Source: Heterodontus francisci
Lineage: Eukaryota
Assembly: GCF_036365525.1 (NCBI RefSeq)
Contig: NW_027141754.1
Location: forward strand, 1 to 60,683
Reading direction: 5' to 3'
DNA: 60,683 nucleotides
Part shown: positions 8,952-46,053 of the stretch, piece by piece
How the letters are laid out: every line of letters starts with the position of its first letter
How positions within the stretch are numbered: the stretch's first letter is position 1
The notes under the pieces: generated by a model
Told to the model about the DNA's origin: nothing
Seen by the model: the letters and a program-made list of their open reading frames with translations, nothing else
Databases searched by the model: none
Program-made: the position numbers and the translations under genes

Positions 8952-9374
8952 TCAGCTGACGTTGACCATCCTCTCGACCAGCCTCCTCCGGACCTCCTGC
9001 ACCTCGGCGGTCAACTGCTCGATCCTCCCCCGCAGGCGCTCGTTCTCCTCCGTCAGCTCCGCCACCCGCCTCTCCCGCCCCTGCTCCCTGGCCTCGCGGC
9101 CCGCCCTGGCGGGGCCGCCCGACCTCCGCCTCCTGGCTCCGCGCCTTGGCCGTCCGCCGGGCGGGGACGGCGTCCGGGAGGGCGGGCCTACCGCGCCGGG
9201 CCCGCGCCCCGTCGAGCCGTCGGCCGGGTCACTTTCGGCTGCCGGGAAGAAGCCGAAGAGTTCCTCCTGTTGGACGGGGTCAGTGGTACTCGGAATATCG
9301 CTGGGGTGGAGCTGGGCTTCCAGAGAGCAGGAGACCAGGGATTGTTCACAATGTTCAGACAACCCCGGCGCCGG
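8952..9374 (-). CDS. DDIT3: DDIT3 last coding exon with basic region and leucine zipper
   Basis: cttgcag| acceptor; PARAG...RRVAELTEENERLRGRIEQLTAEVQEVRRRLVERMVNVS* resembles human PARAG...[37 protein letters not shown]. Confidence 0.95.
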   Translation of the reverse strand, partial: PAPGLSEHCEQSLVSCSLEAQLHPSDIPSTTDPVQQEELFGFFPAAESDPADGSTGRGPGAVGPPSRTPSPPGGRPRRGARRRRSGGPARAGREAREQGRERRVAELTEENERLRGRIEQLTAEVQEVRRRLVERMVNVS

Positions 9375-9898: not shown

Positions 9899-10228
9899 CT
9901 GTGTGAAGTCTGGGGGTCGGCCGAGCTTTCCACCATCTTCCGATGGGTTTCCTACGGATGTAGGGTACAGAACGCTGTCTACATCTTCCAGCCAGAGTTG
10001 GTTCAGCTTGCGGATCTCCCCCGGCGGATTCCCCGTGGATGTAGGGTACAGAACGCTGTCTACATCTTCCAGCCAGAGTTGGTTCAGCTTCCGCCTTTCT
10101 TCCGAGGGGTTCCCTGCTGGAGAGGGATACAGAATGCTCTCCAGATCTTGCAGCCAAGTCTCCAGCTCTTGCCCCGATAGCAGGGCAGGAGCGGAAGAGA
10201 AGGCGGCAGACGGCATCGAATCCGCCAT
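9899..10228 (-). CDS. DDIT3: DDIT3 first coding exon (MADSMP...LSGQELETWLQDLESILY...), three 27-aa repeats
   Basis: ATG in good context (acgATGg), 330 nt, |gtgagg donor; matches the CHOP LSxxELExWxEDL motif. Confidence 0.92.
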
Positions 10229-10754
10229 CGTACTGGGTACGTCCCGATCAACTGCACAAGACAGAGGGGGAAAAAAAAACAAGCAAACGCGCAGGCAGTC
10301 AGACACAGGATCACGGCACGGTGTCAAACCCGCGTGTAATAAACAAACCGGCAAGCACGGGAACACAGAACACGCTGCTAATTGCACCAAGTGAGTAAAG
10401 CTCTTCAACACCAGTAACTCTCCGATACAAGTCACTTTATCCAGAATGATTAAACAGGGGCTTTCAAATCAGGAAACCATCACCGTAAACCCCGGGCGTG
10501 AGGTTCGAGGCACACGAGCCAGTGTCTGAGAGTTAAGACTAGACTCCAGACTTGAGATAATTCTCTGATGCAACATGTTTATAACACAGTTGGAGTGGGT
10601 CGAGGCACCAGCTGTTGTTTGCCATCTCTGTACATTGTATTTAATCCTAATCTGTAACGGCAATGATTACTGCAGATTTAATGAGGAATAATCTTATTGG
10701 GGTTTAAATGGTGCTTGGTTCCCAGATTCCAGACACTTAGGATGGGACAATCGA

Positions 10755-11915: not shown

Positions 11916-12666
11916 AACAGAACAGGAGGAAGTGGAGGCCATTCGGCCCCTCAAGCCTGCTCCCCCCTTCCCCATCCCAAGAATCAGTCTAGTGAACTTT
12001 CATTGCACCCCCCCCCCCCCCCCCCAAGGAAAAAACATCCTTCCTTGGGTAAGGGGAGTGAAACTGTACACCATATTCCAGGTGTGGTGTCACCAAAGCC
12101 CTGAATCTTCCGTACTGTCTATAAACGTTGGGTTGGGAGTCTCGGGCTTGAGAGAATAGATCCAAAAGTTAGAACCAGACCTTTCAGGAGTGAAATGAGG
12201 AAACACTCCTACACACAGAGAGGGTGGCGGAAGTTTGGAACTCTCTCCCGCAAACGGCAAATCGATACTGGATCGATTGTTAATTCTAAATCTGAGATTG
12301 ATCAAATTTGAGGTATCAAGGGATATGGGCACAAAGCCAGGAATATGGAGTTAGGTCACTGATCAGCCAAGATCTCATTGAATGGCAGAACAGGCTCGGG
12401 GAGGGGGCTGAATGGCTTCCTCCTGGCCCTGCGGAACAAGCTCGAAGGGGGCTGAATGGCCTCCTCCTGGCCCTGCGGAACAGGCGCGAGGAAGGGGGCT
12501 GAATGGCCTCCCCCCTGTCCCTGTGCTTCCCCATTCTTTTGCTGAGGATCAGAGAACCCAAACGAGTTGAGCAACAACGTAGGAAATGGAGAGCGGAGGA
12601 CGGCAACGGTGAAGAGCGCGGAGGTAACACTGAAGGGAGGAGAGGGAAAGGCGGTCCTACCTTTTA

Positions 12667-12705
12667 TCACGTGGTCCACGTACAGGCGCGTCGTCTCCTC
12701 GGGAC
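12667..12705 (-). CDS. DDIT3 uORF part 2 (VPRRRRACTWTT*) in 45-nt exon 2
   Basis: ttgtttcgtag| acceptor, TGA TAA double stop, aag|gtagga donor at 12661. Confidence 0.72.
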   Translation of the reverse strand, partial: VPRRRRACTWTT

Positions 12706-12758
12706 CTACGAAACAACCGATACTTAATTAGAGGGGTGGGGGGAAAATAAATGCCTCC

Positions 12759-12768
12759 GTTGCGTAAC
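12759..12768. promoter_or_regulatory. C/EBP consensus site in DDIT3 intron 1
   Basis: GTTGCGTAAC matches RTTGCGYAAY. Confidence 0.45.
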
Positions 12769-13111
12769 GCCCGCGGGGGGTCGCGGGCTACGACCTCCGG
12801 AAGCGGAGAGGCAGGAGATCACCTCGTTCTTCCCAGTTGGACGACCCTCTGCGACGTGGGATGTCACAACCGCATTTTCCCTGGGAATTAACACATTCCT
12901 CATCCCAGGAATTCTCAGCGCGGGTTAAAACCCTGGATTTAACCCCTCCACCACCAACCACCAACACCCACCTTGGGCACCCCACACACACACACAACAT
13001 TTCAAACCTGGAACGTTTAAGAAGGAACAAGGGACAAAATTGGAATGCAAAAAGTAAAGGGCGTGCAATTTTTCGGCTGGACAACGATTGCAAGGGGATG
13101 CAAAGGCTTAC

Positions 13112-13201
13112 TCTGGCGCTGCAACGGTGCTGGCGGGGCGGCCGGTGGCGGATTGGCGGCGGCGGGTTCCTGGCGGAGAGGCGAAATTTCACGTCTGACA
13201 T
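13112..13201 (-). CDS. DDIT3 uORF part 1 (MSDVKFRLSARNPPPPIRHRPPRQHRCSAR)
   Basis: accATG at 13201, 30 codons to a phase-0 donor aga|gtaagc. Confidence 0.7.
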
Positions 13202-13276
13202 GGTCGAGGGTGGCGAGTCGGAATGAGCATGAGAGTTGATGGGTCCCCGCAGCGGAAGCGGCGGGATTGACAGGCG

Positions 13277-13469
13277 CCAATGGGGGGGGGGGGGCCGACC
13301 GGCGCCCCTTCCCGACCAATGGCGGGCGGCGAGGGAGGCGGGATTCTGGGCTGGGCGGGATTCTTCCAGCGACGGCCCCGACGGGTGACTCAGCGAAGTC
13401 ACGAGCTGGGCATGAGTCAGAGAGGGATGAGCTGATGCAAAGGGCTGCCTGATGCAATTCCCATGCAAT
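13277..13469 (-). promoter_or_regulatory. DDIT3 stress-response promoter: 2 CCAAT boxes, 2 AP-1 sites, tandem C/EBP-ATF (AARE/CARE) sites
   Basis: CCAAT 13277-13281 and 13316-13320; TGACTCA 13386-13392; TGAGTCA 13413-13419; TGATGCAAA 13433-13441; TGATGCAAT 13450-13458; half-site ATGCAAT 13463-13469. Confidence 0.82.
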
Positions 13470-14187: not shown

Positions 14188-17152
14188 ATAAGTTGTTGTT
14201 GTTGTAACACCCCCGCCCACCACCAACCTGGAGAAAGTTGTTGTTGTTGTTGTAAAACACCCCTCCCCCACCATCACCCTGGAGAATGTTGTTGTTGTAA
14301 CACAGCTCCTCCCCCACCATCACCCTGGAGAAAGTTGTTGTTGTAACACACACCCTCCCACTGGAGAACGTTGTTGTTGTAACACCCCCCATCCCTCGGA
14401 GAAAGTTGTTCTTGTAACACACACCCTCCCCCCCCAGGAGAAAGTTGCTGTTGTTGCAACACACCCCCTTCCCCTGGAGAAAGTTGTTGTTGTAACACCT
14501 CTCCCCCCCACTGGGGAAAGTTGTTGTAACACCCCCCAGAGAAAGTTGTTGTTGTAATGCTCCCCCTTCCGCTGGAGAATGCTGTTGTTGTAACACCCGC
14601 TCGCCCTGGAGAAAGTTGTTGTTGTAACACACACCCTCCCACTGGAGAACGTTGTTGTTGTAACACACCCCATCCCTCGGAGAAAGTTGTTCTTGTGACA
14701 CACCTCCCCCCTCCCTCGGAGAAAGTTGTTGTTGTAACACCCCCCCTCCCTCGGAGAAAGTTGTTGTTGTAACACACCACCTTCCCCCATTATCACCCTG
14801 GAGAACGTTGTTGTTGTTGTAACACTCCCCCCTTCCCCTGGAGAATGTTGTTGTTGTAACACACCACCTTCCCCCATTATCACCCTGGAGAAAGTTGTTG
14901 TTGTTGTAACACTCCCCCCTTCCCCTGGAGAATGTTGTTGTTGTAACACCCGCTCCCCCTGGAGAAAGTTGTTGTCGTAACACACCCCATCCCTCGGAGA
15001 AAGTTGTTGTTGTAACACCCCCCATCCCTCGGAGAAAGTTGTTGTTGTAACACACACCCTCCCCCCCCCCCCGGAGAAAGTTGCTGTTGTTGCAACACAC
15101 CCCCTTCCCCTGGAGAAAGTTGTTGTTGTAACACCTCTCTCCCACTGGGGAAAGTTGTTGTAACACCCCCCCCAGAGAAAGTTGTTGTTGTAACACCCCA
15201 CCCTCTCCCTGGAGAAAGTTGATGTTGTAACACCCCACCCTCTCCCTGGAGAAAGTTGATGTTGTAACACACACCCTCCCACTGGAGAACGTTGTTGTTG
15301 TAACACACCCCATCCCTCGGAGAAAGTTGTTCTTGTGACACCCCCCCTCCCTCGGAGAAAGTTGTTGTTGTAACACCCCCCTCCCTCGGAGAAAGTTGTT
15401 GTTGTAACACACCACCTTCCCCCATTATCACCCTGGAGAACGTTGTTGTTGTTGTAACACTCCCCCCTTCCCCTGGAGAATGTTGTTGTTGTAACACACC
15501 ACCTTCCCCCATTATCACCCTGGAGAAAGTTGTTGTTGTTGTAACACTCCCCCCCTTCCCCTGGAGAATGTTGTTGTTGTAACACCCGCTCCCCCTGGAG
15601 AAAGTTGTTGTCGTAACACACCCCATCCATCGGAGAAAGTTGTTCTTGTAACACCCCCCCATCCCTCGGAGAAAGTTGTTGTTGTAACACACACCCTCCG
15701 CCCCCCCCCCCCGGAGAAAGTTGCTGTTGTTGCAGCACACCCCCTTCCCCTGGAGAAAGTTGTTGTTGTAACACCTCTCCCCCACTGGGGGAAAGTTGTT
15801 GTAACAACCCCCCAGAGAAAGTTGTTGTTGTAACACCCCACCCTCTCCCTGGAGAAAGTTGTTGTTGTAACACCCCCTCCCTCGGAGAAAGTTGTTGTTG
15901 TAACACCCCACCCTCTCCCTGGAGAAAGTTGTTGTTGTAACACCCCCTCCCTCGGAGAAAGTTGTTGTTGTAACACCCCACCATCCCCCATTATCACCCT
16001 GGAGAAAGTTGTTGTTGTAACACCCCCCCTCCCTCGGAGCAAGTTGTTGTTGTAACACCCCACCATCCCCCATTATCACCCTGGAGAAAGTTGTTGTTGT
16101 AACACCCCCCCTCGGAGAAAGTTGTTGTTGTTGTAACACTCCCCCCTTCCCCTGGAGAATGTTGTTGTTGTAACACCCGCTCCCCCTGGAGAAAGTTGTT
16201 GTCGTAACACACCCCATCCCTCGGAGAAAGTTGTTGTTGTAACACCCCCCATCCCTCGGAGAAAGTTGTTGTTGTAACACACACCCTCCCCCCCTTGGAG
16301 AAAGTTGCTGGTGTTGCAACACACCCCCTTCCCCTGGAGAAAGTTGTTGTTGTAACACCTCTCCCCCACTGGGGAAAGTTGTTGTAACACCCCCCAGAGA
16401 AAGTTGTTGTTGTAACACCCCACCCTCTCCCTGGGGAAAGTTGTTGTTGTAACACACCACCTTCCCCCATTATCACCCTGGAGAACGTTGTTGTTGTTGT
16501 AACACTCCCCCCTTCCCCTGGAGAATGTTGTTGTTGTAACACATCACCTTCCCCCATTATCACCCTGGAGAAAGTTGTTGTTGTTGTAACACTCCCCCCT
16601 TCCCCTGGAGAATGTTGTTGTTGTAACACCCGCTCCCCCTGGAGAAAGTTGTTGTCGTAACACACCCCATCCCTCGGACAAAGTTGTTGTTGTAACACAC
16701 ACCCTCCCCCCCCCCCCCGAGAAAGGTGCTGTTGTTGCAACACACCCCCTTCCCCTGGAGAAAGTTGTTGTTGTAACACCTCTCCCCCACTGGGGAAAGT
16801 TGTTGTAACACCCCCCAGAGAAAGTTGTTGTTGTAACACCCCACCCTCTCCCTGGAGAAAGTTGATGTTGTAACACACCACCTTCCCCCATTATCACCCT
16901 GGAGAAAGTTGTTGTTGTAACACCCCCCCTCCCTGGAGAAAGTTGATGTTGTAACACACCACCTTCCCCCATTATCACCCTGGAGAAAGTTGTTGTTGTA
17001 ACACCCCCCCTCCCTGGAGAAAGTTGTTGTTGTAACACCCCCCCTCCCTGGAGAAAGTTGATGTTGTAACACACCATCTTCCCCCATTATCACCCCGGAG
17101 AAAGTTGTTGTTGTAACACCCCCCCCCCCCCCCGGAGAAAGTTGTTGTTGTC
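14188..17152. repeat. ~3-kb minisatellite: constant core ggagaaagttgttgttgtaacac plus variable C-rich linkers, roughly 75-80 units
   Basis: Direct inspection; explains all the long CYNNN/VTTTT/LQQQ ORFs. Confidence 0.95.
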
Positions 17153-17846: not shown

Positions 17847-18164
17847 GTAAATTTAAACCCCCCCCCCCCCCTCCTCCCCTTCCAAACACACAGGTTCGGG
17901 AAAGTTCCAGCAGCTTCCAGGGAGCGTTTGACCCTTCTCTCTCTTCTCCCCCCCCCCGGCCGTCTTTGGTACATTCCAGCCCCCCCCCCACCAGCCAGGA
18001 GGATTTGGTACATTCCAGCCCCCCCCCCCCCCCCCACTACCAGCCAGGAGGATTTGGTACATTCCAGTGCTCCCCCCCCCCCCCCCCCCCCCCAAAATTA
18101 CTGAGCTTTGGAATATTCCAGTGCGCCCCCGGGGCTGGGAGGATTTGGTATATTCCACCCCCCC

Positions 18165-19817
18165 CCCCTTTACCCTCCCCCCCTCTCTGGAGGGTTACAG
18201 AATGGACCCTCCCCCCTTTACCCTCCCCCCTCTCCGGAGGGTTACAGAATGGACCGTCCTCTCTTTACCCTCCCCCCTCTCCGGAGGGTTACAGAATGGA
18301 CCGTCCCACCCCTTCACCCTCCCCCCCTCTCCGGAGGGTTACAGAATGGACCGTCCCCTCTTTACCCTCCCCCCTCTCTGGAGGGTTACAGAATGGACCG
18401 TCCCCTCTTTACCCTCCCATCTCTCCGGAGGGTTACAGAATGGATCCTCCCCCCTTCACCCTCCCCCCTCTCCGGAGGGTTACAGAATGGACCGTCCCCC
18501 CTTCACCCTCCCCCCTCTCTGGAGGGTTACAGAATGGACCGTCCCACCCCTTCACCCTCCCCCCTCTCCGGAGGGTAACAGAATGGACCGTCCCCTCTTT
18601 ACCCTCCCATCTCTCCGGAGGGTTACAGAATGGATCCTCCCCCCTTCACCCTCCCCCCTCTCCGGAGGGTTACAGAATGGACCGTCCCCCCTTCACCCTC
18701 CCCCCTCTCTGGAGGGTTACAGAATGGACCGTCCCACCCCTTTACCCTCCCCCCTCTCCGGAGGGTTACAGAATGGACCGTCCCCCCTTTACCCTCCCCC
18801 CTCTCCGGAGGGTTACAGAATGGACCCTCCCCCCTCTCCGGAGGGTTACAGAATGGACCGTCCCCCCTTTACCCTCCCCCCTCTCCGGAGGGTTACAGAA
18901 TGGACCGTCCCCCCTTTACCCTCCCCCCTCTCCGGAGGGTAACAGAATGGACCCTCCCCCCTCTCCGGAGGGTTACAGAATGGACCGTCCCACCCCTTTA
19001 CCCTCCCCCCACTCTCCGGAGGGTTACAGAATGGACCGTCCCACCCCTTTACCCTCCCCCCACTCTCCGGAGGGTTACAGAATGGACCGTCCCACCCCTT
19101 TACCCTCCCCCCTCTCCGGAGGGTTACAGAATGGACCCTCCCCCCTTCACCCTCCCCCCTCTCCGGAGGGTTACAGAATGGACCATCCCACCCCTTTACC
19201 CTCCCCCCTCTCCGGAGGGTTACAGAATGGACCGTCCCCCCTTTACCCTCCCCCCTCTCCGGAGGGTTACAGAATGGACCGTCCCCCCTCTCTGGAGGGT
19301 TACAGAATGGACCGTCCCCCCTTTACCCTCCCCCCTCTCCGGAGGGTTACAGAATGGACCGTCCCCCCTCTCTGGAGGGTTACAGAATGGACCGTCCCCC
19401 CTTTACCCTCCCCCCTCTCCGGAGGGTTACAGAATGGTCCCTCCCCCCTCTCCGGAGGGTTACAGAATGGTCCCTCCCCCCTCTCCGGAGGGTTACAGAA
19501 TGGTCCCTCCCCCCTCTCCGGAGGGTTACAGAATGGACCATCCCACCCCTTTACCCTCCCCCCTCTCCGGAGAGTTACAGAATGGTCCCTCCCCCCTCTC
19601 TGGAGGGTTACAGAATGGTCCCTCCCCCCTCTCCGGAGGGTTACAGAATGGACCGCCCCCCCTTTACCCTCCCCCCTCTCCGGAGGGTTACAGAATGGAC
19701 CCTCCCCCCTTTACCCTCCCCCCTCTCCGGAGGTTTACAGAATGGACCCTCCCCCCTTTACCCTCCCCCCTCTCCGGAGGGTTACAGAATGGACCGTCCC
19801 CCCTTTACCCTCCCCCT
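18165..19817. repeat. Minisatellite ctctccggagggttacagaatggacc[gtccccctttaccc]tccccc, units of ~31 and ~46-51 bp
   Basis: Tandem periodicity; preceded by 4 copies of tttggtacattccagc-polyC at 17965-18160. Confidence 0.95.
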
Positions 19818-25225: not shown

Positions 25226-25636
25226 GTGCGTGGCAATTAAAAATCAGAGAGAGGGAAAAAAAAAAACTGTCCGCGACCGCCTCCACAAAAAGGAAGGAAG
25301 GGTTTGCGGTTTTCTCCAGTACCTTTAACCGCCTCGGACTGTCCCGAAACGCCGAACAGGCGAGTGGGGTGGGAGGGGGGGTGCTTTTCAAACGCAAGAC
25401 GCAGTCGTGTACGCCAGCCAGTTTACACACGCCTCGCCCCCCCAAACCCCGGCGGTTGCAGAAGGCACCACCGCCTTCTGGGGGGGGGGGGGGGGGGGCA
25501 ACGAGCTCTGGCCTCGCCAGCGACTCTCACAACCCGTGAAGGAATTTTTGAAAAAAAATAATTGGCGACTGTTAATAAATTCCGAGAATGTGGCATTGAG
25601 GATTTATTTTGTTGTTGTTTCTGTTCTGAATTTCAG

Positions 25637-27376
25637 GGGGAAACTGCAGCCAGTTTTCGCACGCTCCTCCTCTGGGATTGAAGAAGGTGATGAGTAAGGC
25701 ACCCCCCGCCCTGGCACCCGAGCACAAGAACGCTTTTCTCTCCAAGTTATTGGCGGCTCCCGGCCCGACGGCGAGACCCTTCCAGCCGGGGCAGACCCTG
25801 GGTCAGAGGCCGGAGGCCCGTCCCCCGTGCGCCCGGCAGAGGCACGGCAGCTCGGACCACAGGCAGATGTCTCCCCGGGGCTGGGGGCAAGGGGACGGGG
25901 TCAGCTCGATGGAGGCTGGCCCCCAGTCGCCCAGGCTTGAAGCTAGGACTCACTCCACCTGCAGCCAGGAGCTGCGACCGGGCTCCACTCACGCCCCACG
26001 CCGGAACCCGTCGGCCCCCGCCGTCTTGCCCCAGAAACCTCAGGCGCCTTGCGTCCCGGTTGCCCGCCCTCATCCTCCCCTCCGCTCTCCAAAGAGTCCC
26101 GCGCTGAAGACCCCCTGCGGTTTTGCCCCGGGACCCGAGGCCGCGGTGGCCCCCGCTTTGTTCTTGAGGCCCTGCGATGCGTGGGACCAGGCGCTCTGCC
26201 CCGGGAGCGATCCCCTTGGCCTCCTCCGCCCCGTCCCCGCCAGCCCGGAGAGTCCGGGCGGCACCGTGCCCGCGAGCGGGCCCCCCGGGCAGCCTCAGGT
26301 CTCCGCCGTGAATGTAAACCTGCCTTCTGCCGCCTTGCCGCCGTCAGGCAGGGCGGGTCACGGGGACTGTGCGGCCAGGTCGCCGCAGGGGTCGCGCCCC
26401 TCGTCCGTCTCCTCCTCCTCCTCCTCTGACCAAGGGGGCCGTGCATTTCAGTCCCCCCGCAGCTCCTCCCGACCTCTCTGCAGATCCCCGCGGACCCTGA
26501 GCTCGCCCATGTCTCCTCTGCCGCCCAGCCCGACTGCCAAGTCTGACGGGATCCTCAGGTCCTACCATGACCTACCCAGCCTGCTCTCCTCCTCCTCCTC
26601 CTCGGTGGGCGTTGGCCACCAAAGCCAGCTGCCCGCACCACCAGAGACCCCAGCCCAGCCCAGCCTGCTCGGCATGCCTTTAAGCCAGATCTTTGGCCAT
26701 CACAACGCTGCCTTCTTCCCGGCCAGCAGCCTGCTCTCTGCCGCGGCCAAAGCCCAGCTAGCCAGCCAGAGCAAGGCGGTTGCCGGCGAGCCCGGGGCCC
26801 CAAGCACTTTACCAAACGGTTACCCCCTGCCCGGGTTCCTGGGCCCCGCGGCTGGGGGCGGGCAGGCCCGACTGACGGCGCCGTCTCCCAGGGACCCCTC
26901 CCGCAGGCGGAAGCCCGCCACGCCGACTGTACTGAGCATGCTCAGACAGTCGCACGGCCTGCGGCTTGAATCCGACTCCCCGAGGAGCAAGGTGCCCGGG
27001 CAGGCTGTGCCGCAGACGCTCCACTCCTCCTGCTCTCCGGCAAACGGCGGTGCCAGCGGCGCTGTCACTGCCACTGCTCCTGCCTCCCCTCCGTCCTTCC
27101 TGCCTTGTCATGACAGCCAGCTGAGCCCCATGGCCCCCGGCCTATCCTGCCCCTCGGCCCACAGCCTGCTTCTAATGAATGTGCCTGTTGAAGAAGGAAC
27201 CTCTTGCCAAAGTATAAGCACTAACTTAGTCCCAGGCTATCAGGATGCCGGCAGTCCCCTGCTGGGCCTGGTCGCTCAGCTCGAGCCAGCGTCTGGGAGC
27301 AACGCGCCGTTACTGAAAATCCCGGCCTCCGCCTTGCTGGCGGTTCCCGGCAGCGTCCGGAATGTCGCCAATCCCG
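25637..27376 (+). CDS. MBD6: MBD6 coding exon 4 (large Pro/Ser-rich exon)
   Basis: 1740-nt open exon, tttcag|...|gtaagc, contains FFPASSLLSAAAKAQLASQ. Confidence 0.9.
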
Positions 27377-27549
27377 GTAAGCACGGAGGGCTGTTTCGAC
27401 CTGCGCGCTGGGCAGGAGAGAAGCACGGGCGTGAAGCAAAGCGACGGATGCGTTCGATCCTTTTGAACTAAGCACCGGCGCCAAGGGGGGAAGTGATCAG
27501 TTCCTTCACTCCGACTAACACAAACTCTGTTCCCCAGCCACTGAGCTCA

Positions 27550-28270
27550 GCCTCAGTATGAGTTCCCCCACACCCCGCATTGCATCATTTTCACACTCCA
27601 TCCTCCACGCTGCTGTCCGTTTCAGCATTCTCTCTGTCAACCTGAAGCCTGTAACCATCTTCATCTCTGTCGACTACTTTGCCAAGCTTCCTATCATCAT
27701 CTGCTGCTCCCTTCACCCGGGTCTCTTGTCGTTTTATAAAAAAAAAATTTAAGAGTAATCGACCCCAAAATTTAAGAGTAATCGACCCCAAAAACCGACC
27801 TTTGGGGAAACACCACTGCGAGCCATCTGGGGAGTCACTTACCACCCAGTCCGTGCCGGCTCTCCACGGAGCGGTCAGCCCGCGCTCGGTCCCCCGTCGC
27901 CCTGCGGGTTTATTTCCCCTCACGTGCCCGTCCACTCTCCTTCCGAAATCATCGATCGTCTCCCGCTTCCACCACCCTCGTCGGCAGTGAGCTCCGAGTC
28001 TGGGAAGACATCCGCTGCCACCAGCCTGTCAGTGAGACAATTCCTTGTGGGTACTGCCGCTTTACCCTTCCCTCCACGGGCTTCCATCTTCTTAATGAGC
28101 CTCCCGTTTGGCACTTTGTCAGGCGCCTTCCGAAAGTCCATCTACACAACATCCACTGCACTACCTCAAATCAACCTCCTCCGTTACCTCATCAAAGAAT
28201 TTAATCCGGTTATTCGGGCGCAGTTTGATCATCATAAATCCATGCTGCCTCTCCTTAACTGACCCATGCC
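27550..28270 (-). mobile_element. Degenerate CR1 RT fragment
   Basis: MDFRKAPDKVP (MDFxKAFDKVP-like) and ADD.KLG motifs. Confidence 0.6.
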
Positions 28271-28968
28271 TTTCAAATGCTGGCGTTTAAGCTCGACGGC
28301 AGTCTGCTCCTGCTCATCGAACTCAATCAGCATAACTCTGTCCCTCCTTCCCTCGTGCTTATCCAGCTTTACTCTGTATCTAACCCCCGTGCTGTGCCTG
28401 TCCTGGGAGTGTTTGATGGGGGACAGTGCAGAGGGAGCTTTACTCTGTATCGAACCCCCCTGTACTGTACCTGTCCTGGGAGTGTTTGATGGGGGACAGT
28501 GTAGAGGGAGCTTTACTCTGTATCTAACCCCCGTACTGTACCTGTCCTGGGAGTGTTTGATGGGGGACAGTGTAGAGGGAGCTTTACTCTGTATCTAACC
28601 CCCCCCGTGCTGTACCTGTCCCTGGGAGTGTTTGATGGGGGACAGTGTAGAGGGAGCTTTACTCTGTATCTAGCCCCCGTGCTGTACCTGTCCTGGGAGT
28701 GTTTGATGGGGACAGTTAGAGAGAGCTTTACTCTGTATCTAACCCCCCGTACTGTACCTGTCCTGGGAGTGTTTGATGGGGGACAGTGTAGAGGGAGCTT
28801 TACTCTGTATCTAACCCCCCCCCCCCGTGCTGTACCTGTCCCTGGGAGTGTTTGATGGGGGACAGTGTAGAGGGAGCTTTACTCTGTATCTAGCCCCCGT
28901 GCTGTACCTGTCCTGGGAGTGTTTGATGGGGACAGTGTAGAGGGAGCTTTACTCTGTATCTAACCCCG

Positions 28969-29350
28969 TTTTTTTTTTTTTGGTGACCTTTATACCCCAG
29001 ACCCCTTTTATATATTTTTTATGTCGAGGGGGCCTTTATTCCTCAGGCCCCCTTTATATATTTTTTATGTCGAGGGGGCCTTTATTCCTCAGGCCCCCTT
29101 TATATACACACTTATATTTTTAAAATAACTTTATTAAAACCAGATAAATAAACAAAAAACTCAAATTAAAATGCCGTTTTTTTTTGGTTTTTTTTATGTC
29201 GAGGGGGCCTTTATTCCTCAGGCCCCCATTATATATATTTTATATGTCGAGGGGGCCTTTATTCCTCAGGCCCCCTTTATATACACACTTATATTTTTAA
29301 AATAACTTTATTAAAACCAGATAAATAAACAAAAAACTCAAATTAAAATG
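28969..29350 (-). mobile_element. Two tandem 3' tails of the Tx1-type element
   Basis: Poly-T, hairpin sub-repeats and ctcaaattaaaatgcc (ORF2 end GILI*), as at 45970-46053. Confidence 0.8.
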
Positions 29351-29601
29351 CCGTGCTGTACCTGCCCTGGGAGTGTTTGATGGGGACAGTGTAGAGGGAG
29401 CTTTACTCTGTATCTAACCCCCCCGTTTTTTTTTTTAACATTATGACAGCCACCAGCGGCTCGCTGAATTCATCCGCTGAGGGGAGGGGTGTGACTGGGC
29501 CTCACCAGACAGGAAAGGCCCTGCCCTCACTCCCCGGCCTGTGCTGAGTCAAATGTGATGGACACAGTGTAGAGGGAGCTTTACTCTGTATCTAACCCCC
29601 G

Positions 29602-29987
29602 TTTTCTTTTATAAGGTGACCTTTATACCCCAGGCCCCTTTTATATTTTCCACATCGAGGGGGCCTTTATTCCTCAGGCCCCCTTTATATACATATTTAC
29701 AGTTTTAAAATAACTTTATTAAAACTAGATAAATAAACAAAAAACTCAAATTAAAATGCCATTCTCGGCATCAACGATGCACTCCAGTCCCTGCGGTGCC
29801 CACCGGTCACGGAAGGCCTCAAGCATACCGGCGGACACCGCAGGCTCCTTGTCCAGGGACACCCGGGCGCGAACGTAACCGTGGAAGAGGGGCAGGCAAT
29901 CGGGGAGGACGGACCCCCCGACGGCCCGCAACCTGGACCTGTGAATTGCCACCTTGGCCAGGCCCAGGAGCAGACCGACGAGGAGAT
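29602..29987 (-). mobile_element. 5'-truncated Tx1-type element (ORF2 C-terminus and 3' UTR)
   Basis: AIHRSRLRAVGG...IVDAENGILI* nearly identical to 45740-45982. Confidence 0.88.
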
Positions 29988-30625
29988 AGTGTTTGATGGG
30001 GACAGTATAGAGGGAGCTTTACTCTGTATCTAACCCCCGTGCTGTACTTGCCCTGGGAGTGTTTGATGGGGACAGTATAGAGGGAGCTTTACTCTGTATC
30101 TAACCCCGTGCTGTACCTGTCCTGGGGAGTGTTTGATGGGGGACACTGTAGAGGGAGCTTTACTCTGTATCTAACCCCCCGTACTGTACCTGTCCTGGGG
30201 AGTGTTTGATGGGGACAGTGTAGAGGGAGCTTTACTCTGTATCTAACCCCCGTGCTGTACCTGTCCTGGGGAGTGTTTGATGGGGGACAGTGTAGAGGAA
30301 GCTTTACTCTGTGTCTAACCCCCGTACTGTACCTGTCCTGGGGAGTGTTTGATGGGGGACAGTGTAGAGGGAGCTTTACTCTGTATCTAACCCCCGTACT
30401 GTACCTGTCCTGGGGAGTGTTTGATGGGGGACAGTGTAGAGGGAGCTTTACTCTGTATCTAACCCCCGTACTGTACCTGTCCTGGGGAGTGTTTGATGGG
30501 GGACAGTGTAGAGGGAGCTTTACTCTGTGTCTAACCCCCGTACTGTACCTGTCCTGGGGAGTGTTTGATGGGGGACAGTGTATTTCTGTTAATTGCTTTT
30601 AAGACCCTCTGTTTCCTGTTTGCAG

Positions 30626-31398
30626 AAGCTGTTTCTCCGCCTGCCTCTATCTCCATGGCGGGCAGAGGTCACCCCGCCATCACCAAGACAACGTCAGTTC
30701 TCAACCCTGGTGTCGTGGTTACCAGTACAGTAAATGAGTCACTGCCTGGGCAGCTGCCTCTCGGAGAGGGCTTCCCGTTCATCAGCCAGGATCAAGTGCT
30801 TCCATTCGGGCAGACAGTGCCCAGTAGCCCTGGGTTTCCCGGAACTCTGAACCCCAGCCTGCTTGGCCCGTTGCCCATCCCCTTCCCTGTCAGCCAGCCA
30901 CAGACCCTGAACCAGAATCCCTTAAACCTGGTTCCCACTACAATGGAAGGGCAGGGAGACGCCATACCGAACCTCTTCGGGTTACTTAACCCTACTCTCC
31001 AGACAGCTTTATCTCCAACTTCCAACGACGCCGATGGACAGACACTACAAGCCTTGCAGATTCTTGTCACTGCTCTGCTTCAGAGCCACTCCCCGGCAGC
31101 CATTCTCCCCCTGGCATCCATCAACCTCCCTCTTCCGGACTTGACACAGCAGCCGCCGCCTGTTCTCCAGCTCCCCACCCTTCAGGAGCAGCTGCCCGGC
31201 CAGCCAACCGGGGACAGGCCGGAGGGGCTGCTGGCCAATCCCCTCGGCAACGCTTTCGGCGGACTCTCCGGCAACGACGGGACCTCGCAGCCCCTCCTCT
31301 TCCCGGCGGCACCCGGCGCCCCGGCCTGGCTGGGCCTGAATCCCCAGTTGCTGGCTGCGGTGCTGAGTTCAACAGATGGTGTTACCAGTCAGGCTCAG
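30626..31398 (+). CDS. MBD6: MBD6 coding exon 5 (HPAITKTTSVL...)
   Basis: 773 nt, ttgcag|...|gtatgg, MBD5-like HPAITKTTSVL block. Confidence 0.9.
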
Positions 31399-31721
31399 GT
31401 ATGGGACGGGCGCGTGGCAGAATGGTGTTCCATTGATGAATTTATTTTTGTGTCGGGTGTAACAACATAATCGATCGTTCAGCACCGAGCCTGTTACACA
31501 GGAAGAGTAGGAGGCCCATTCAGCCCCCTCGAGTTCCAGATTTCCGCTCCCCCTTTGTGCTTCCCGACACATCACCCCTGAACGGCCCGGGCTCTAACTT
31601 TAACGTAATTCAAATAGGAAACGCTGGAAATAGTCCCAGACAGTGTCAATGGAGAGAGAAGCAGAGTTAATGTTTCAGGTTGGTGCCCTTTCCTGTTGAA
31701 GTGCGCGATTGAGTTTTGTGT

Positions 31722-31859
31722 NNNNNNNNNNNNNNNNNNNNNNNNNNNNNNNNNNNNNNNNNNNNNNNNNNNNNNNNNNNNNNNNNNNNNNNNNNNNNNN
31801 NNNNNNNNNNNNNNNNNNNNNNNNNNNNNNNNNNNNNNNNNNNNNNNNNNNNNNNNNNN
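31722..31859. other. Assembly gap (138 N), probably within a CT/GT microsatellite
   Basis: Run of n flanked by tgtgt and ctctct. Confidence 0.99.
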
Positions 31860-31879
31860 CTCTCTCTCCACCTCCGCAG

Positions 31880-32060
31880 GTCTGCAATTCGTCCGTTCCC
31901 TTGGGATCCACTGCCTCGACCTCCTCCCCTGCCTCCCCTAACCTGGAGGGTAACACGGCGATGTCGGCGAGCGAGTCAATGCTGCCGTTAACTGGACATG
32001 GGAAAATCCACGCCTTAATGCCTCATCTCCTGAACCCTCTGCTGGGAGCCAGTTTGCTGG
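31880..32060 (+). CDS. MBD6: MBD6 coding exon 6
   Basis: 181 nt, ccgcag|...|gtgaga, LLNPLLGASLLG. Confidence 0.88.
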
Positions 32061-32201
32061 GTGAGAGTTATTGATGTACGGTGTAGAATCATTTAAGGGG
32101 GAAGCTGGATAAACACACATTGGGGGGGGTGGTGGGGGGGGGGTGGGAAAGGAATAGAATGGCCTGCTTCTGTGATGTAATCTCTCGTCTTCTCCCTTCA
32201 G

Positions 32202-32419
32202 GTGACCTGTCCGCGTTGAACAGCAGCCTGAACGAGCCGCAGCTGCCGGGGATGCAGGCAATGCTGAACGGCAACCCCTGGCAGCTGCAGCAACAGCAGC
32301 CCCTGATACAAACTCTCCAGGGACCTTTGGGCATCCAGCTGCTTCCGAGCCAGACCCCCCTGACAGGACAAGCAAATCATCACACTAACCCCCTCGCCTG
32401 CCTCTTCCAGAATGTCCAG
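32202..32419 (+). CDS. MBD6: MBD6 coding exon 7 (ends NPLACLFQNVQ)
   Basis: 218 nt, cttcag|...|gtgagt. Confidence 0.9.
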
Positions 32420-32599
32420 GTGAGTCTGCGTGTCTCCGGTCTCTCGCTCTACCTCTGCCCCTCCTCTTCTGACCCATACTGGGTCCATCAACACACAGTA
32501 CAATCCCCCACCCCTCCATATGTCTAAAACAGGCAGTCGCTAACAGTTAACCTTTTGCATTAATGTCTGTCTTTAAAAGGTCACTGCTCAGACAGCGAA

Positions 32600-33410
32600 G
32601 AATGAGGAGAGGCAATATAAACTAAATGACACAGTTTTAAAGGGGGTACAAGAATGGAGAGATCTCGGGGTGGGGGCAGGGTTTGTTGGTGGGGGAGTTT
32701 TGGACATATTATTTGAAGGTGGGAGGACAAGTTGAGAAGGCTCTTTTCTTCATAAAAAAAAAAATAGCATAAGGGATCCTGGCTTTAGTAATCGAGGCAC
32801 AGAGTACAAAAGCAAAGACGTTACACTAAAGCTTTACGAACACTGTTATCCCCCGGCTGGTGTACTGTGTCCCAATCCTGTGCCCCGCTGTTCAGGGAGG
32901 ATGTCGGGGCCTCGAAGAGGGGGTGCGGAGGAGATTGAGCAGAATGGAACCAGGGGACGAGGGACTTCAGTCAATGCGGAGAGGCTGGGAGAATCTGGGA
33001 TTGTTCTTCCTCGGAGCAGAGAAGGTTAAGGGGGAGATTTAATGGAGGCGTTCGGAATCAGGAGGGGGGTTTGGATAGAGTAGAGAGAGAGAGAGAGAGA
33101 AACTGTCTCCAGTGGCGGGAGGGAGGGACACAGATTTAAGATAATCGGTAAAAGAACCAGAGGTGGGGGGAGAGGAGGAGAATTTTTATTTTAATTCGGG
33201 GAGTTGTTGTGATCTGGAACGCGCTGCCTGAAAGGGCGGTGGAAGCAGATTCAATAGTAACTTTCAAAAGGGGGAATTGGATAAATACTGGAAGGGGGGA
33301 AAAGTTTGCAGGGATGTGGGGGGGAAAGAGCAGGAGGGGGGAGAGTGGGGACTAATTGGATAGATCTTTCAAAGAGCCGGCACAGGCCGAATGGGCTCCT
33401 GCTGTGCTGT
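32600..33410 (+). mobile_element. CR1-type LINE 3' fragment
   Basis: YCV..PA / LEE..RR region and IWNALPERAVEA tail. Confidence 0.7.
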
Positions 33411-33915
33411 ATCAGTCTCTGATAGTGTCTTCAAGTGCCCCCGTATTCCAGGCAGAATTGGCCGTCTTCGCCTAGCAGTACTGAGGGAGTGCCTCACTGT
33501 CAGAGGGGCCGTCTTTCGGATATGACACCAAACCGAGGCCCCCGTCTGCCCCCTCAGGTGAAAGTAAAAGATCCCACGGCCACTGTTTTGAAGAAGAGCG
33601 GGGGGGGGGGGGGGGGGGGGGGGGAGGGAGGAGTTCTCCCCGGTGACGGGGGGGTCAATATTTATCCCTCAACCAACATCACTAAAGAAAACCCACGTGA
33701 TCTGGTCATATTCACGTAGCTGTTTGTTGTTAGCTTGCTGTGCGCACATTGGCTGCTGCATCTCTTACAATGCCGCACTGCTGCACACTTCATTGGCTGT
33801 GAAAAGCTTTGGGATGTGGCGGAAGAAGGCGCTGGGTAAATGCAAGACCTTTTGTCCTGTCACCTTGCTTCGAGCTTCTGTTTGACTGATTTCTCACGGT
33901 CTTCCTCTCTCGCAG

Positions 33916-34560
33916 CTGAACATGGGCCAGTCTTTGGCTCCCGGTAAAGCAGGGAGCCTCCCCGACAGCTCCTACACCAGCCCCGCTCCTTCCCACCACC
34001 CTGCCCCAGAGCCCCAGCAGAACCTCGAGGGGATGGAGCCCTGCATCGACGCCCGGGTCAGCGATGGGGCGATGAGCACAGAACCCGGCAGCGACTGCCG
34101 CCAGCCAAGCCCTGCGCCAGCCTTCAGTACCACGAGTGCCTTTACAGCCTCTCTCTCCGAGCCTGGGTCACGGAAGGGAGTTGAGGAGGGGGCGGGCAGC
34201 CAACGTGCCCCGCAGCGGAGCAGCAAGCGGAAGGAGGAGGGCCCACGAGGGACCGGGGTCAGCCACGGTCGGGGCGCGACGAAGGAACATCGCTGTGGGT
34301 GCAGCGTGCGGGCGAACGGAGAAATCTCAGGGCACAACGGTTGCACGGAAGAGCCTCGGGGCACGAGGCGGGAGTGCGTGAATGGACGGTGCGGGCTGGA
34401 CACTGGTATCGGGGGGTCGGCGGAGCATTACCGACACCGGACGTCAGGTTGCAACTGCACGGAGGAAGGGCAGGCCAATGGTTTCCCTTTGAGATCAGGC
34501 AAGCATGGGGGAAAGAGTAATGCACAACACCCCCGTCAGGGGAAGAGAGGGCAAGACAAG
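33916..34560 (+). CDS. MBD6: MBD6 coding exon 8
   Basis: 645-nt open exon, tcgcag|...aag|gtaaga, phase 0/0. Confidence 0.85.
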
Positions 34561-34662
34561 GTAAGAAAAGTGAAAGACAGATTTCTCTCTTTTCCCCCCC
34601 CCCGAAAATTCCACTCTTTACCTCCAATCCCTCGGCTCTGGAGTTCCCTCCCTAAACCTCTC

Positions 34663-34694
<32 letters not shown>

Positions 34695-35023
34695 CTCCTT
34701 TAAGATGCTCCTTAAAACCTCCCTCTTTGACCACCAGTCCCACTATCTCCTTCCCATAGCCCGTTGTCGGATTTTGTCTGGTTTACGCTCTTAATGACGT
34801 CAAGGGCACTGTGTAAACACCATTGTTTGTCGTTGAGCTCGGCTGAGACTCCTAAACTCATTTCAGGCGAGATCCCAACAAAGGACTTTCAATGGGTGCA
34901 CGTTTTCACAGAATCGTGACACGTTCAGGCCTTTGTTTTTTGGCAGCCGTACAATTGACTCACTGTCTCTGTCTTTCCCCCACCCTCCCCCACTCCTACC
35001 ACTGTTGACTGAACCCATCCCAG

Positions 35024-42402: not shown

Positions 42403-45400
42403 GGCTGCTGCCTAATTGGACTGTTGACTGCTGATTGCAGCAACGAGCCTCAGCTGAAATTGCTGGTGGCAGTTGGAGGTTGCAGAGGTGGAGAGAGGAG
42501 CTAGACCGAGCACGGGAGAGCAGTTACAACCCAGCAGAGGGAAAATGTCAACAACCGTCGCCATTAAAGAGAAGAAAGAGACATTTTTTGTTGGAAACAA
42601 GGCTTTGTCTGGAGGTGGGTGCTGAACACCAGTAATTTGCTTTGCTTTGGACTGTTGGGGGAGGAATGAGTGGCCGGAACAACAAGGGGTGGGGCTGCCA
42701 AATCAGCAGGAATCTGTGCTGCTGCAACAAGCACACAGGGAAGCTCCCTCCCCACCCCACCCTAATTGCCCAGCCTGGGTCAGCTGAAGCTGCCTGGCTA
42801 AACAGACGGAAGGGGATAGATAGATCCTGGGCAGCTTCAGCTGACCTAGGTAAAGGCGCCTCCCCCAACCAGAAGACCAAGTTCAAAGACTGTTTTAAGT
42901 GTGCTGTGAGCACCACCTCCAGAAAGCAAGTCATCCCTTACAGCCTGCCTTTGCCTCTCCTCTATTACCTCAGCCTCTCCACTAACCTGTTGTTTGTTTT
43001 TTTTAAAATACATATTCAATATCTTCTGTGAATCTTTTGATATTCAGTGTTCAAGCCCACAATTTGGGGTGGATTTAGCTCTTAGACCCATGACAAGCCC
43101 TTCATCACCGGTGGCGGGGCCCTCTACTACCTATGCAGCTGCAGCCTCTGTGGCTGCCCACGTGGCCCCGTCACTCTTTAAATTGTTGACATGCAGCCAT
43201 GGGGTGAAGAGCTATCCCCACCCCACCATGTCTATTGAGGCCTGCGTAAAGGCAATGGCCGAGGTTGTCGGCCCCTCGGCCATTGTTGCGGCCTCAAAGA
43301 TGTATGGGAAGGCTGTGTTCTTTTTGAAGACCGAGCGGGCAGTGTCCCTGGCCCTGAGTAAAGGGCTCACTGTCACTATCACGTCTTCTGGACCTCGGAC
43401 GGGGCACGGTGCCACGCCTGCAAGGGGGTGGGGCATGTTCGCAAGAACTGCCCCAACCTCCCGGCCGCCAACTCCACCTCGGCGGCCCAGGGTGACGCCA
43501 GTGCACCTCCTCCCGCTCGCCTCACGCATCGTACAGACACCGCTAGAGAGGGAGGTGCTCGACTTGGAGTCCCGCCTCGGTCATGCCGTCGTGGACCCGG
43601 CCCTGTGGCAGGCGTATAAAGAGAAGAAGGGCGCTCTGAGGGACCTGCAGCTTATAGGGTCCCGAGGCGCGTACACGAGGTCGCGGATTCAGATCCTGGA
43701 AGATTTGGACCACGCCTCACCCTTCTACTCACTGGAAAAATGGCAGGGGGGTCCGTAAGCAGCTCATCGTGCTGCTGGCCGACGACGGATCCTCCATCAC
43801 GGATCCGGAGGGAATGGGTCTCCTGGTCCGTTCTTATTACAGTGCGTTGTTCTCTCCGGATCCGTCCAGCGAGGATGCGCGCAGAGTTTTGTGGGAAGAC
43901 CTGCCGCAGGTCAGCCCAGACAGCGGCGAAGGATTGGAGGCTCTGCTCACGTTGGCGGAGCTGACTGGCGCCCTCCACCAGCTCTCGAGGGGCAAATCCC
44001 CAGGGCTGGATGTGTTGACCGTGGAGTTCCTCAGGGCGTTCTGGGACGTCCTGGGGGACGATTACGCGCGGGTCCTGGGGGAAAGCCTGGCGACCGGGGA
44101 GATGCCCCTCTCGTGGCGCAGGGCGGTCATCATCCTGCTGCCGAAGAGGGGCGATCTCCGCCTGCTTAAAAGCTGGTGTCTGGTCTCCCTCCTCAGCACG
44201 GATTATAAGATCTTTGCCCGGGCTATGTCTATCCGCCTGGGCTCCGTGCTGGCCCACATGATCCACCCCGACCAGTCCTACACGGTCCCGGGCCGGTCCA
44301 TCCAGGATAACATCCACCTGGTCCGGGACCTGATCCATCTTTCCCAGAGGACTGGTCAGTCGGTCGCCTTTCTCTCCCTCGATCAAGAGAAGGCGTTCGA
44401 CAGGGTGGATCACGATTACCTTTTCGGGACTCTGCGCGCTTTCGGACTTGGGCCGCATATCGTGGCCCGGGTCCGACTTTTGTATGCCACTGCAGAGTGT
44501 CTAGATAAGGTTAAAGGGTCCTTGACGGCGCCCCTTCGCTTTGGGAGAGGAGTGCGTCAGGGATGCCCCATGTCCGGCCAATTGTACACCATCTGCGTGG
44601 AGACCTTCCTGTGCCTGCTTCGCAGGAGGTCGTCCTCTCGGCTTACGCCGACGACGTGCTTCTCATGGTCACAGATCCCGTTGACTTGCGGAGGATGCAC
44701 GACTGCCAGCAGACCTTTTCTGTCGTGCCCTCCGTGAGGATCAATTGGGAGAAATGTTCCAGGCTCCTGGTGGGTCAGTGGCGGGTGGACTCCCTGCCAG
44801 AGGAGTTGACTCCTTTTGCGTGGAGCACCACGCACCTCCTCTATCTGGGAGTCCACCTTAGCCCCGCTGAGGAAGCCTGGCCGGCAAACTGGCAGGAGTT
44901 GGAGGCGAAAGTCACCGCTCGGCTGGGGCGCTGGACAGGACTGCTCCGAGTGCTTTCCTACAGGGGCCGTGCGTTGGTCATAAACTAACTAGTGGCCTCC
45001 ATGTTGTGGTACCGGTTGGTCACTTTGGCCCCGCCCCCTGCATTCGCCTCCAGTCAGGGAGTTGCCCGCCGACGGAGGAGAGCGCCTCGGCTGTCCGGAC
45101 GGCCGACTCCAGGGACGGACCGGCGAGCGGAGGAGTAGCTGAAGCCCCCGGGTCGCCCCCTCACTGCTGGTGGCGGGGCGGGCTCGAGTGCAGAGCACTC
45201 CCTGCCGAGCTGATCCCCGCTCGGCCGGAACTGCTCATCGGACCCAAGCCCCGAAACCCTCCTCGGGAGCCAGTCCCGCACAACCCGAGCTGCCTCTCGG
45301 AAATGCTCGCCATGTCATTCCAATCGGCGCTGAGAGGTTTCCTGTATGGGCTGCTCCTGCACACTCTCCACTTCCTCACCCTCGTCAGCCGGACGGACAC

Positions 45401-46053
45401 ACCCTGGCGGTCTGCGTTGCCATCTGGCGGCGAGGGAAAACCCCGATGGAGGTCTCTCTACGTGGGAGTCTTCCCCCCTTTACATCGGGGACCTGGGGTG
45501 GAGGGTGTTGCACAGGGCGGTCCCGTGCAATGGACTTTTAAGTAGGTTCACGGACTCCCAGGCCGCCTGTACTTTCTGCGGCCTGGACGAGTCCGTGTTC
45601 CATGTATATACAGAGTGTGCGAGGTTGCAGTCCCTCTTCGAGTATTTGAAGGGGCTGCTCCTCCAGTTCTGGCTGCACTTCAGTCCCACGCTCCTGATCT
45701 TTGGACACCCAGTGCAGTGGGGGCGTGGGCCGGGAGGAGGATCTCCTCGTCGGTCTGCTCCTGGTCCTGGCCAAGGTGGCAATTCACAGGTCCAGGCTGC
45801 GGGCCGTCGGGGGGTCCGTCCTCCCCGATTGCCTGCCCCTCTTCCGCGGTTACGTTCGCGCCCGGGTGTCCCTGGAGAAGGAGCATGCGGTGTCCGCCGG
45901 TACGCTTGAGGCCTTCCGCGACCGGTGGGTACCGCAGGGACTGGAGTGCATTGTCGACGCCGAGAATGGCATTTTAATTTGAGTTTTTGGTTTATTTATG
46001 TTTTTAATAGTTATTTTAGAAATGTAAATATGTATATAAAGGGGGCCTGAGGA
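42403..46053 (+). mobile_element. Tx1-type non-LTR retrotransposon with internal deletions (5' UTR, ORF1 with CCHC knuckle, RT, C-terminal zinc motif)
   Basis: ORF1 from ATG 43090 (IVAASKMYGKAVFFL); CHACKGVGHVRKNC ~43410-43451; RT motifs KSPGLD.LTVEF, LDQEKAFDRVDH, GVRQGCPMSG, YADD; CTFCGLDESVFHVYTEC. Frameshifts present and no endonuclease domain visible. Confidence 0.9.

Follow-up and report, generated by a model that had tools for sequence, protein, structure and literature searches.

The DDIT3 gene and its surroundings

The DNA analyzed here (the window) is the whole 60,683-nt contig of Heterodontus francisci, and its reverse strand carries a gene for the transcription factor CHOP (DDIT3). 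This identity had been predicted from the sequence and is now well established. The encoded protein has a bZIP_2 match of 26.6 bits, above the Pfam cut-off, its best matches in the PDB are C/EBP alpha/beta, and an NCBI protein named DDIT3 of the same species is 100% identical to it. In a tree of 21 C-terminal regions, which comprises CHOPs alone and has no non-CHOP outgroup, its C-terminal 75 aa cluster with shark and ray CHOPs at 94/93 support, and the chimaera is sister to this elasmobranch clade. The repeat exon and the zipper have one genome match each, indicating a single locus and excluding a paralogue in the same genome.

The array described below lies entirely in exon 3 (9899..10251, -), which was defined by translation and contigs and contains the start codon at 10228 and 110 codons. 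The last coding exon (8952..9374, -), identified by the bZIP match, adds 140 aa with the basic region and leucine zipper, giving a full protein of 110 + 140 aa = 250 aa. On the reverse strand exon 3 ends at 9899 in front of a GT donor, the last exon begins at 9374 behind an AG acceptor, and the 9374/9899 splice is joined in contigs of 4/4 runs of the species, all of which come from one sample and are typed as RNA by an automated guess, with none on record as RNA. Two exons form the 5' leader. Exon 1 (13112..13228, -) was placed from contigs, and its 5' end is not fixed. Exon 2 (12661..12705, -) is 45 nt long, has AG/GT boundaries and matches the size of the gap between exons 1 and 3 in the X5/X8 contigs of a close relative. 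A Pro/Arg-rich upstream open reading frame (uORF) of 42 codons (12667-13201, -) starts at the ATG at 13201 in exon 1, terminates in exon 2, and stops 29 nt before the CHOP start. Human CHOP also has a uORF, and the IFI motif named for it (PMC8167367) is absent from the 42-codon shark uORF. Upstream of exon 1, at 13433..13458, lie two candidate C/EBP-ATF (AARE)-like sites. They match a strict 9-mer that occurs twice in the window and that we take to be the AARE consensus. By sequence, the leader, uORF and AARE-like sites make up an ordinary CHOP gene layout, and the gene, spliced and at a single locus, looks intact and regulated.

A public model of the gene has 573 aa, including a 323-aa N-terminal extension. 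It is likely over-extended, because the RNA contigs have their 5' end near 13.2-13.3 kb, where there is no in-frame upstream ATG. In the CHOP frame, too, exon 2 has no stop codon, and it looks like the N-terminal extension carried by a sawshark X1 model. Several other CHOP orthologues are misnamed or unnamed in databases, those of Mustelus and sawshark being labelled 'uncharacterized' and 'C/EBP beta-like'. The basic region of the window protein (about 9070-9140, -) has no Cys pair, and the 8 other sharks have CxC or CxxC, possibly a redox or metal site.

Some of the neighbours may correspond to those of human DDIT3, where we take the order to include MARS1, MBD6 and DCTN2. A WHEP-TRS exon lies tail-to-tail with the CHOP gene (match above the Pfam cut-off), and a dynamitin exon lies upstream (E 1.4e-6, under the cut-off). 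No MBD domain was detected in the window, and 0/8 genome matches to it fall there. Long Pro/Ser-rich open frames occupy 25630-34794 (+), where MBD6 would be expected from the presumed order; the four tested have no Pfam match. Long tandem arrays with 35-bp and 33/47-bp units (TRF) lie just upstream of the gene, at 14323-17151 and 18162-19816. Broken LINE-type elements are present at 42910-48221, including RVT_1 (43658-44737, +) and an endonuclease (47283-48221, -).

The exon 3 array and the helix it repeats

Tandem Repeats Finder (TRF) detects a period-81 array at 9936-10156 with 2.7 copies and 80% matches. Translation of 9899-10228 (-) gives 110 aa, in which residues 25, 52 and 79 are Trp; their codons lie at 10156, 10075 and 9994, spaced exactly 81 nt apart. 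Both analyses confirm the three 27-aa (81-nt) units, with exact spacing from Trp to Trp, that were originally predicted. The best in-frame self-match of the exon is 98/120 nt, whereas the highest value among 300 codon shuffles was 56. Each 27-codon unit consists of one half of a Trp-containing helix followed by a Pro/Ser linker. Unit 1 (10091..10171, -) aligns to Callorhinchus CHOP over 50 aa without a gap and is, by this alignment, orthologous to the single AD1 helix and linker of chimaera and bony vertebrates. Unit 2 (10010..10090, -), delimited by TRF, translation and unit comparison, is of a middle type. Unit 3 (9929..10009, -) combines, by unit comparison, a middle-type core with a terminal-type tail. 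AlphaFold2 predicts one helix in each unit (aa 19-33, 43-60 and 71-87, respectively; pTM 0.28). A fold search with this model found no match at E <= 0.001, an uninformative result at that pTM, and no Pfam family covers the repeat exon (best E 0.18).

The contig that holds the locus is short (60.7 kb), and 54 bases are identical between units 2 and 3, two facts in favour of an assembly origin of the three copies. Nevertheless, a spacer contig unique to the unit 2/3 junction (about 9980-10066) is present in 4/4 runs at 0.6-1.1x flank depth, which speaks against a duplication made by the assembly as well as against the collapse of a longer array, and which answers the earlier concern that reads might reveal fewer units. 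The same array is present in 8 other shark sequences and in contigs of a relative. An assembly artefact is thus extremely improbable, and the three units at this locus are real. The RNA-guess contigs carry variants at 9982 and 10024 that change array residues (V83I and P69S); the residue that each variant introduces is common in other units.

The original prediction held that the N-terminal helix of CHOP occurs three times. Scoring with a profile of 20 single-copy bony-vertebrate CHOP segments upholds this for one half of the helix. For the Trp-to-Leu half, units 2 and 3 score 27.6, nearly as high as unit 1 (30.3). For the stretch of ten residues that precedes Trp, unit 1 reaches +16.2, compared with -13.9 and -16.8 in units 2 and 3, which is at the level of the background (mean -8.9; the mean and 99th percentile were used, since the maximum was contaminated by the window's own units). 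Unit 1 therefore has the conserved E-L-E-x-W-x-E-D-L helix of DDIT3/CHOP (+16.2 and +30.3). This scoring traces every unit back to the conserved W-x-E-D-L helix, and only the C-terminal (Trp-to-Leu) half of AD1 has been multiplied. Its N-terminal half (10157..10186, -), the ten residues before the first Trp, is single.

In human CHOP, AD1 comprises aa 15-22, has helical propensity by NMR, binds p300 and TRB3, and matches the i, i+3, i+4 pattern of activation domains; Tyr22 is required for ubiquitin-mediated degradation, and AD2 comprises aa 57-62 (PMC5718554). TRB3 recognizes aa 10-18, and phosphorylation of Ser30 promotes degradation (PMC5712004 and PMC11840111). With human numbering transferred through a marsupial orthologue (Trp at 21), units 2 and 3 lack residues equivalent to human 10-20 and so hold no complete AD1 or TRB3-binding site. 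The TRB3 site of shark CHOP is accordingly single by sequence comparison, and the NMR-defined human helix (aa 15-22) falls mostly within the non-duplicated half.

Distribution and history of the array

The original prediction implied that the array was peculiar to this protein, and that did not hold, since the array is common to 9/9 full shark CHOPs. The proposed alignment across vertebrates gave 3-4 units in sharks, one in chimaera and one in bony vertebrates. Three units occur in the window CHOP, Carcharodon, Hemiscyllium, Stegostoma and Rhincodon, and four in Cetorhinus, Mustelus, an unnamed Mustelus-like protein and Pristiophorus; none of the nine has fewer than three. These counts are for sequences other than a sawshark isoform that lacks the array exon, duplicate isoforms (n=4) and one fragment. 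In 9/9 sharks the self-repeat score (58-163) exceeds all 20 shuffles. A search for longer arrays among 273 candidates of 378-2000 aa in protein databases brought up only the window gene's own 573-aa model.

In rays and skates, segments were counted by eye, since the motif pattern missed some of them. Pristis and Rhinoraja have 3, and Mobula and Hemitrygon have 2, all degenerate, and self-repeat was not significant in the 3/3 tested. Callorhinchus milii CHOP (XP_007907517.1) has one unit, and its 50-aa gap-free alignment to unit 1 includes the linker tail; this chimaera unit likely preserves the ancestral single unit. Among bony-vertebrate CHOPs, 15/16 self-repeat scores fall within their own shuffles, and the marginal one (41, compared with a maximum of 31 in 20 shuffles) is below every shark score. 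A second motif in bony fishes was considered as a homologue of the shark last unit. It shares one alignment column with it, yet self-repeat tests are negative in those fishes and the motif seems to be located past the intron that follows the array in sharks, so that homology was judged unproven. Given the shark phylogeny, which we take as generally accepted, the distribution dates the array to at least the last ancestor shared by galeomorph sharks and the sawshark.

Across shark orders the units can be told apart as first, middle and last classes. Asp+3, Leu+8 and Pro+10 are invariant in 31/31 shark units. The linkers vary in length, giving a unit spacing of 21 to 31 aa, and indels are mostly in the linkers. 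Last units carry a signature of Leu+4, Glu+5 and Ile+7 in 8/9 sharks, the sole exception being the window CHOP, with its middle-type core and terminal-type tail. Seven last units cluster at 88/87 support in a unit tree that is otherwise poorly resolved, with strong support on 3/25 branches. In 7/9 sharks the last unit has Leu in place of Trp, creating an LxxLL pattern, which we take to be that of a nuclear-receptor box.

Units 2 and 3 had been described as nearly identical copies. The identity stands, including at synonymous sites, and its extent was overstated by one base: the block is 54 nt (9956-10009 and 10037-10090) and is followed by 15/27 mismatches, a distribution with P about 1e-7 under random placement. 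The tail of unit 3 is nearer to unit 1 (19/27) than to unit 2 (12/27). Two duplications of different age, as first proposed, do not account for an array that is shark-wide and for identity confined to a patch beside a diverged tail. The patch points instead to an old array in which conversion or unequal crossover took place recently. In a close relative (organism B), a one-unit loop contig (window 9974-10081) has 4.9-5.1x (X5) and 4.4-4.5x (X8) flank depth in two studies, compared with the 0.6-1.1x seen in the runs of the window species. Contig depth is not the same as copy number, and these values are a hint that organism B has about 6-7 units with near-identical middle copies.

The array is real and expressed, a shark-wide change to the architecture of a well-known transcription factor. 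Shark CHOP proteins are already in NCBI and UniRef. The literature matches listed, among which subscription journals and supplements were outside the scope, include no description of shark CHOP or its repeats. Compared with the original prediction, the array is more widespread, and less of the helix is repeated.

Possible function and known counterparts

The original prediction saw in the repeats a multivalent activation/degron module. The multivalent part is still the best reading of the sequence: the units would form a multivalent acidic activation domain of shark CHOP that replaces AD2, an explanation we consider somewhat more probable than its negation. The units are predicted to form the amphipathic helix with hydrophobic i, i+3/i+4 positions of acidic activation domains, with hydrophobic moments of 0.36-0.48, compared with 0.41-0.46 for single-copy AD1. 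An AD2-like Trp lies 31-42 aa after AD1 in 15/16 bony CHOPs and at +47 in the chimaera. Between the array and the basic region no Trp was found in 7/9 sharks, and in two carpet sharks a Trp does occur downstream, within another context; by this comparison, sharks are without the second Trp helix (AD2) of other vertebrates. According to the proposed scheme, duplication would postdate the divergence from chimaeras and predate the radiation of living sharks, with later turnover of the array by unequal crossover or conversion. Each unit would form a separate amphipathic helix within a disordered region that has no predicted tertiary fold. The helices could then gain avidity in binding co-activators (p300/CBP, Mediator-type surfaces) and take the place of the AD2 Trp helix, which is missing in sharks, and the TRB3-binding half would stay single. 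The fixed positions Asp+3, Leu+8 and Pro+10, maintained while the linkers vary, support this explanation. It is weakened by the location of the NMR helix mostly in the unduplicated half, by the variable copy number (3-4, possibly more), and by the ability of conversion to mimic conservation. The extra units are also less acidic (net -1 to -4 compared with -4 to -5) and are preceded by basic residues, so that their behaviour as acidic activators could be weaker.

The variable copy number and the recent conversion tract would also suit a tolerated tandem expansion in a disordered region, in which unit 1 alone would be functional and conversion would keep the rest alike. Tandem repeats are plentiful in the window (88 TRF rows), and the ray copies are degenerate. 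Homogenization alone, however, would erase the last-unit signature kept in 8/9 sharks, none of the nine sharks has fewer than three units, and the concentration of indels in the linkers also speaks against it. Tolerated expansion is unlikely on this evidence.

The degron part of the prediction is weakened. If the units were repeated degrons or Tribbles-binding sites, CHOP turnover would be faster; the repeated half does span the Tyr22 position, and human CHOP requires its N-terminal region to be degraded by the proteasome (PMC5712004). However, the Tyr22 equivalent (Trp+1) is Leu or Val in 31/31 shark units and Leu in chimaera, the Ser30 equivalent (Trp+9) is Tyr, Cys, His or Thr and is Ser in 0/31, and the TRB3 site is not duplicated. 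Repeated degrons are therefore a decidedly unlikely explanation. A possible resemblance between the unit core and the C/EBP Tribbles degron was set aside, as the literature consulted gave no consensus for that degron.

Opposite in effect to an activation domain, the extra helices could be decoys or intramolecular inhibitors, sequestering co-activators or folding back on the bZIP, and would thereby strengthen shark CHOP as a dominant-negative partner of C/EBP and ATF4. The earliest description of CHOP was as a dominant-negative regulator (PMC5712004), the shark basic region is divergent, and acidity is lower in the extra units. Against such a role, the retained Trp/Leu face is the face of an activation helix. 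Taken together, these inhibitory roles seem very unlikely.

CHOP is the chief output through which ER stress promotes death, and in the mammalian protein a single short N-terminal stretch serves activation, TRB3 binding and degradation in overlapping fashion. Sharks would provide a natural dissection of this stretch, with one half multiplied, the other single, Tyr22 replaced and AD2 lost. More speculatively, and in our judgment doubtful though worth considering, the shark activation domain might act as a copy-number dial, in which AD2 has been lost, the co-activator-facing half of AD1 multiplied, a single TRB3 brake retained, and the array is still expanding. If so, the number of units would set the strength with which the integrated stress response pushes urea- and TMAO-rich sharks towards adaptation or death. 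Species with 1, 3, 4 and perhaps 6-7 units form a ready valency series.

In comparison with known systems, shark CHOP has the C-terminal bZIP and N-terminal W-x-[ED]-D-L helix of vertebrate DDIT3/CHOP, and the gene in the window has the four-exon layout with a uORF, a tail-to-tail WHEP-domain neighbour and a putative dynamitin exon nearby, which may match the human MARS1/DCTN2 neighbourhood. It differs in having 3-4 copies of the helix half on the C-terminal side, Leu for Tyr22, and no AD2 Trp helix. The CHOP of Callorhinchus milii has the core and linker tail of unit 1, but in a single copy and with the downstream Trp kept at +47. Tandem activators exist as both natural and engineered examples. 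Multi-helix acidic activation domains of the Gcn4-Med15 type likewise place short amphipathic Trp/Leu helices in a disordered chain (PMC5718554). In contrast to these domains, the shark units, known from sequence, arose by a recent and still visible tandem duplication and have a regular 27-aa period.
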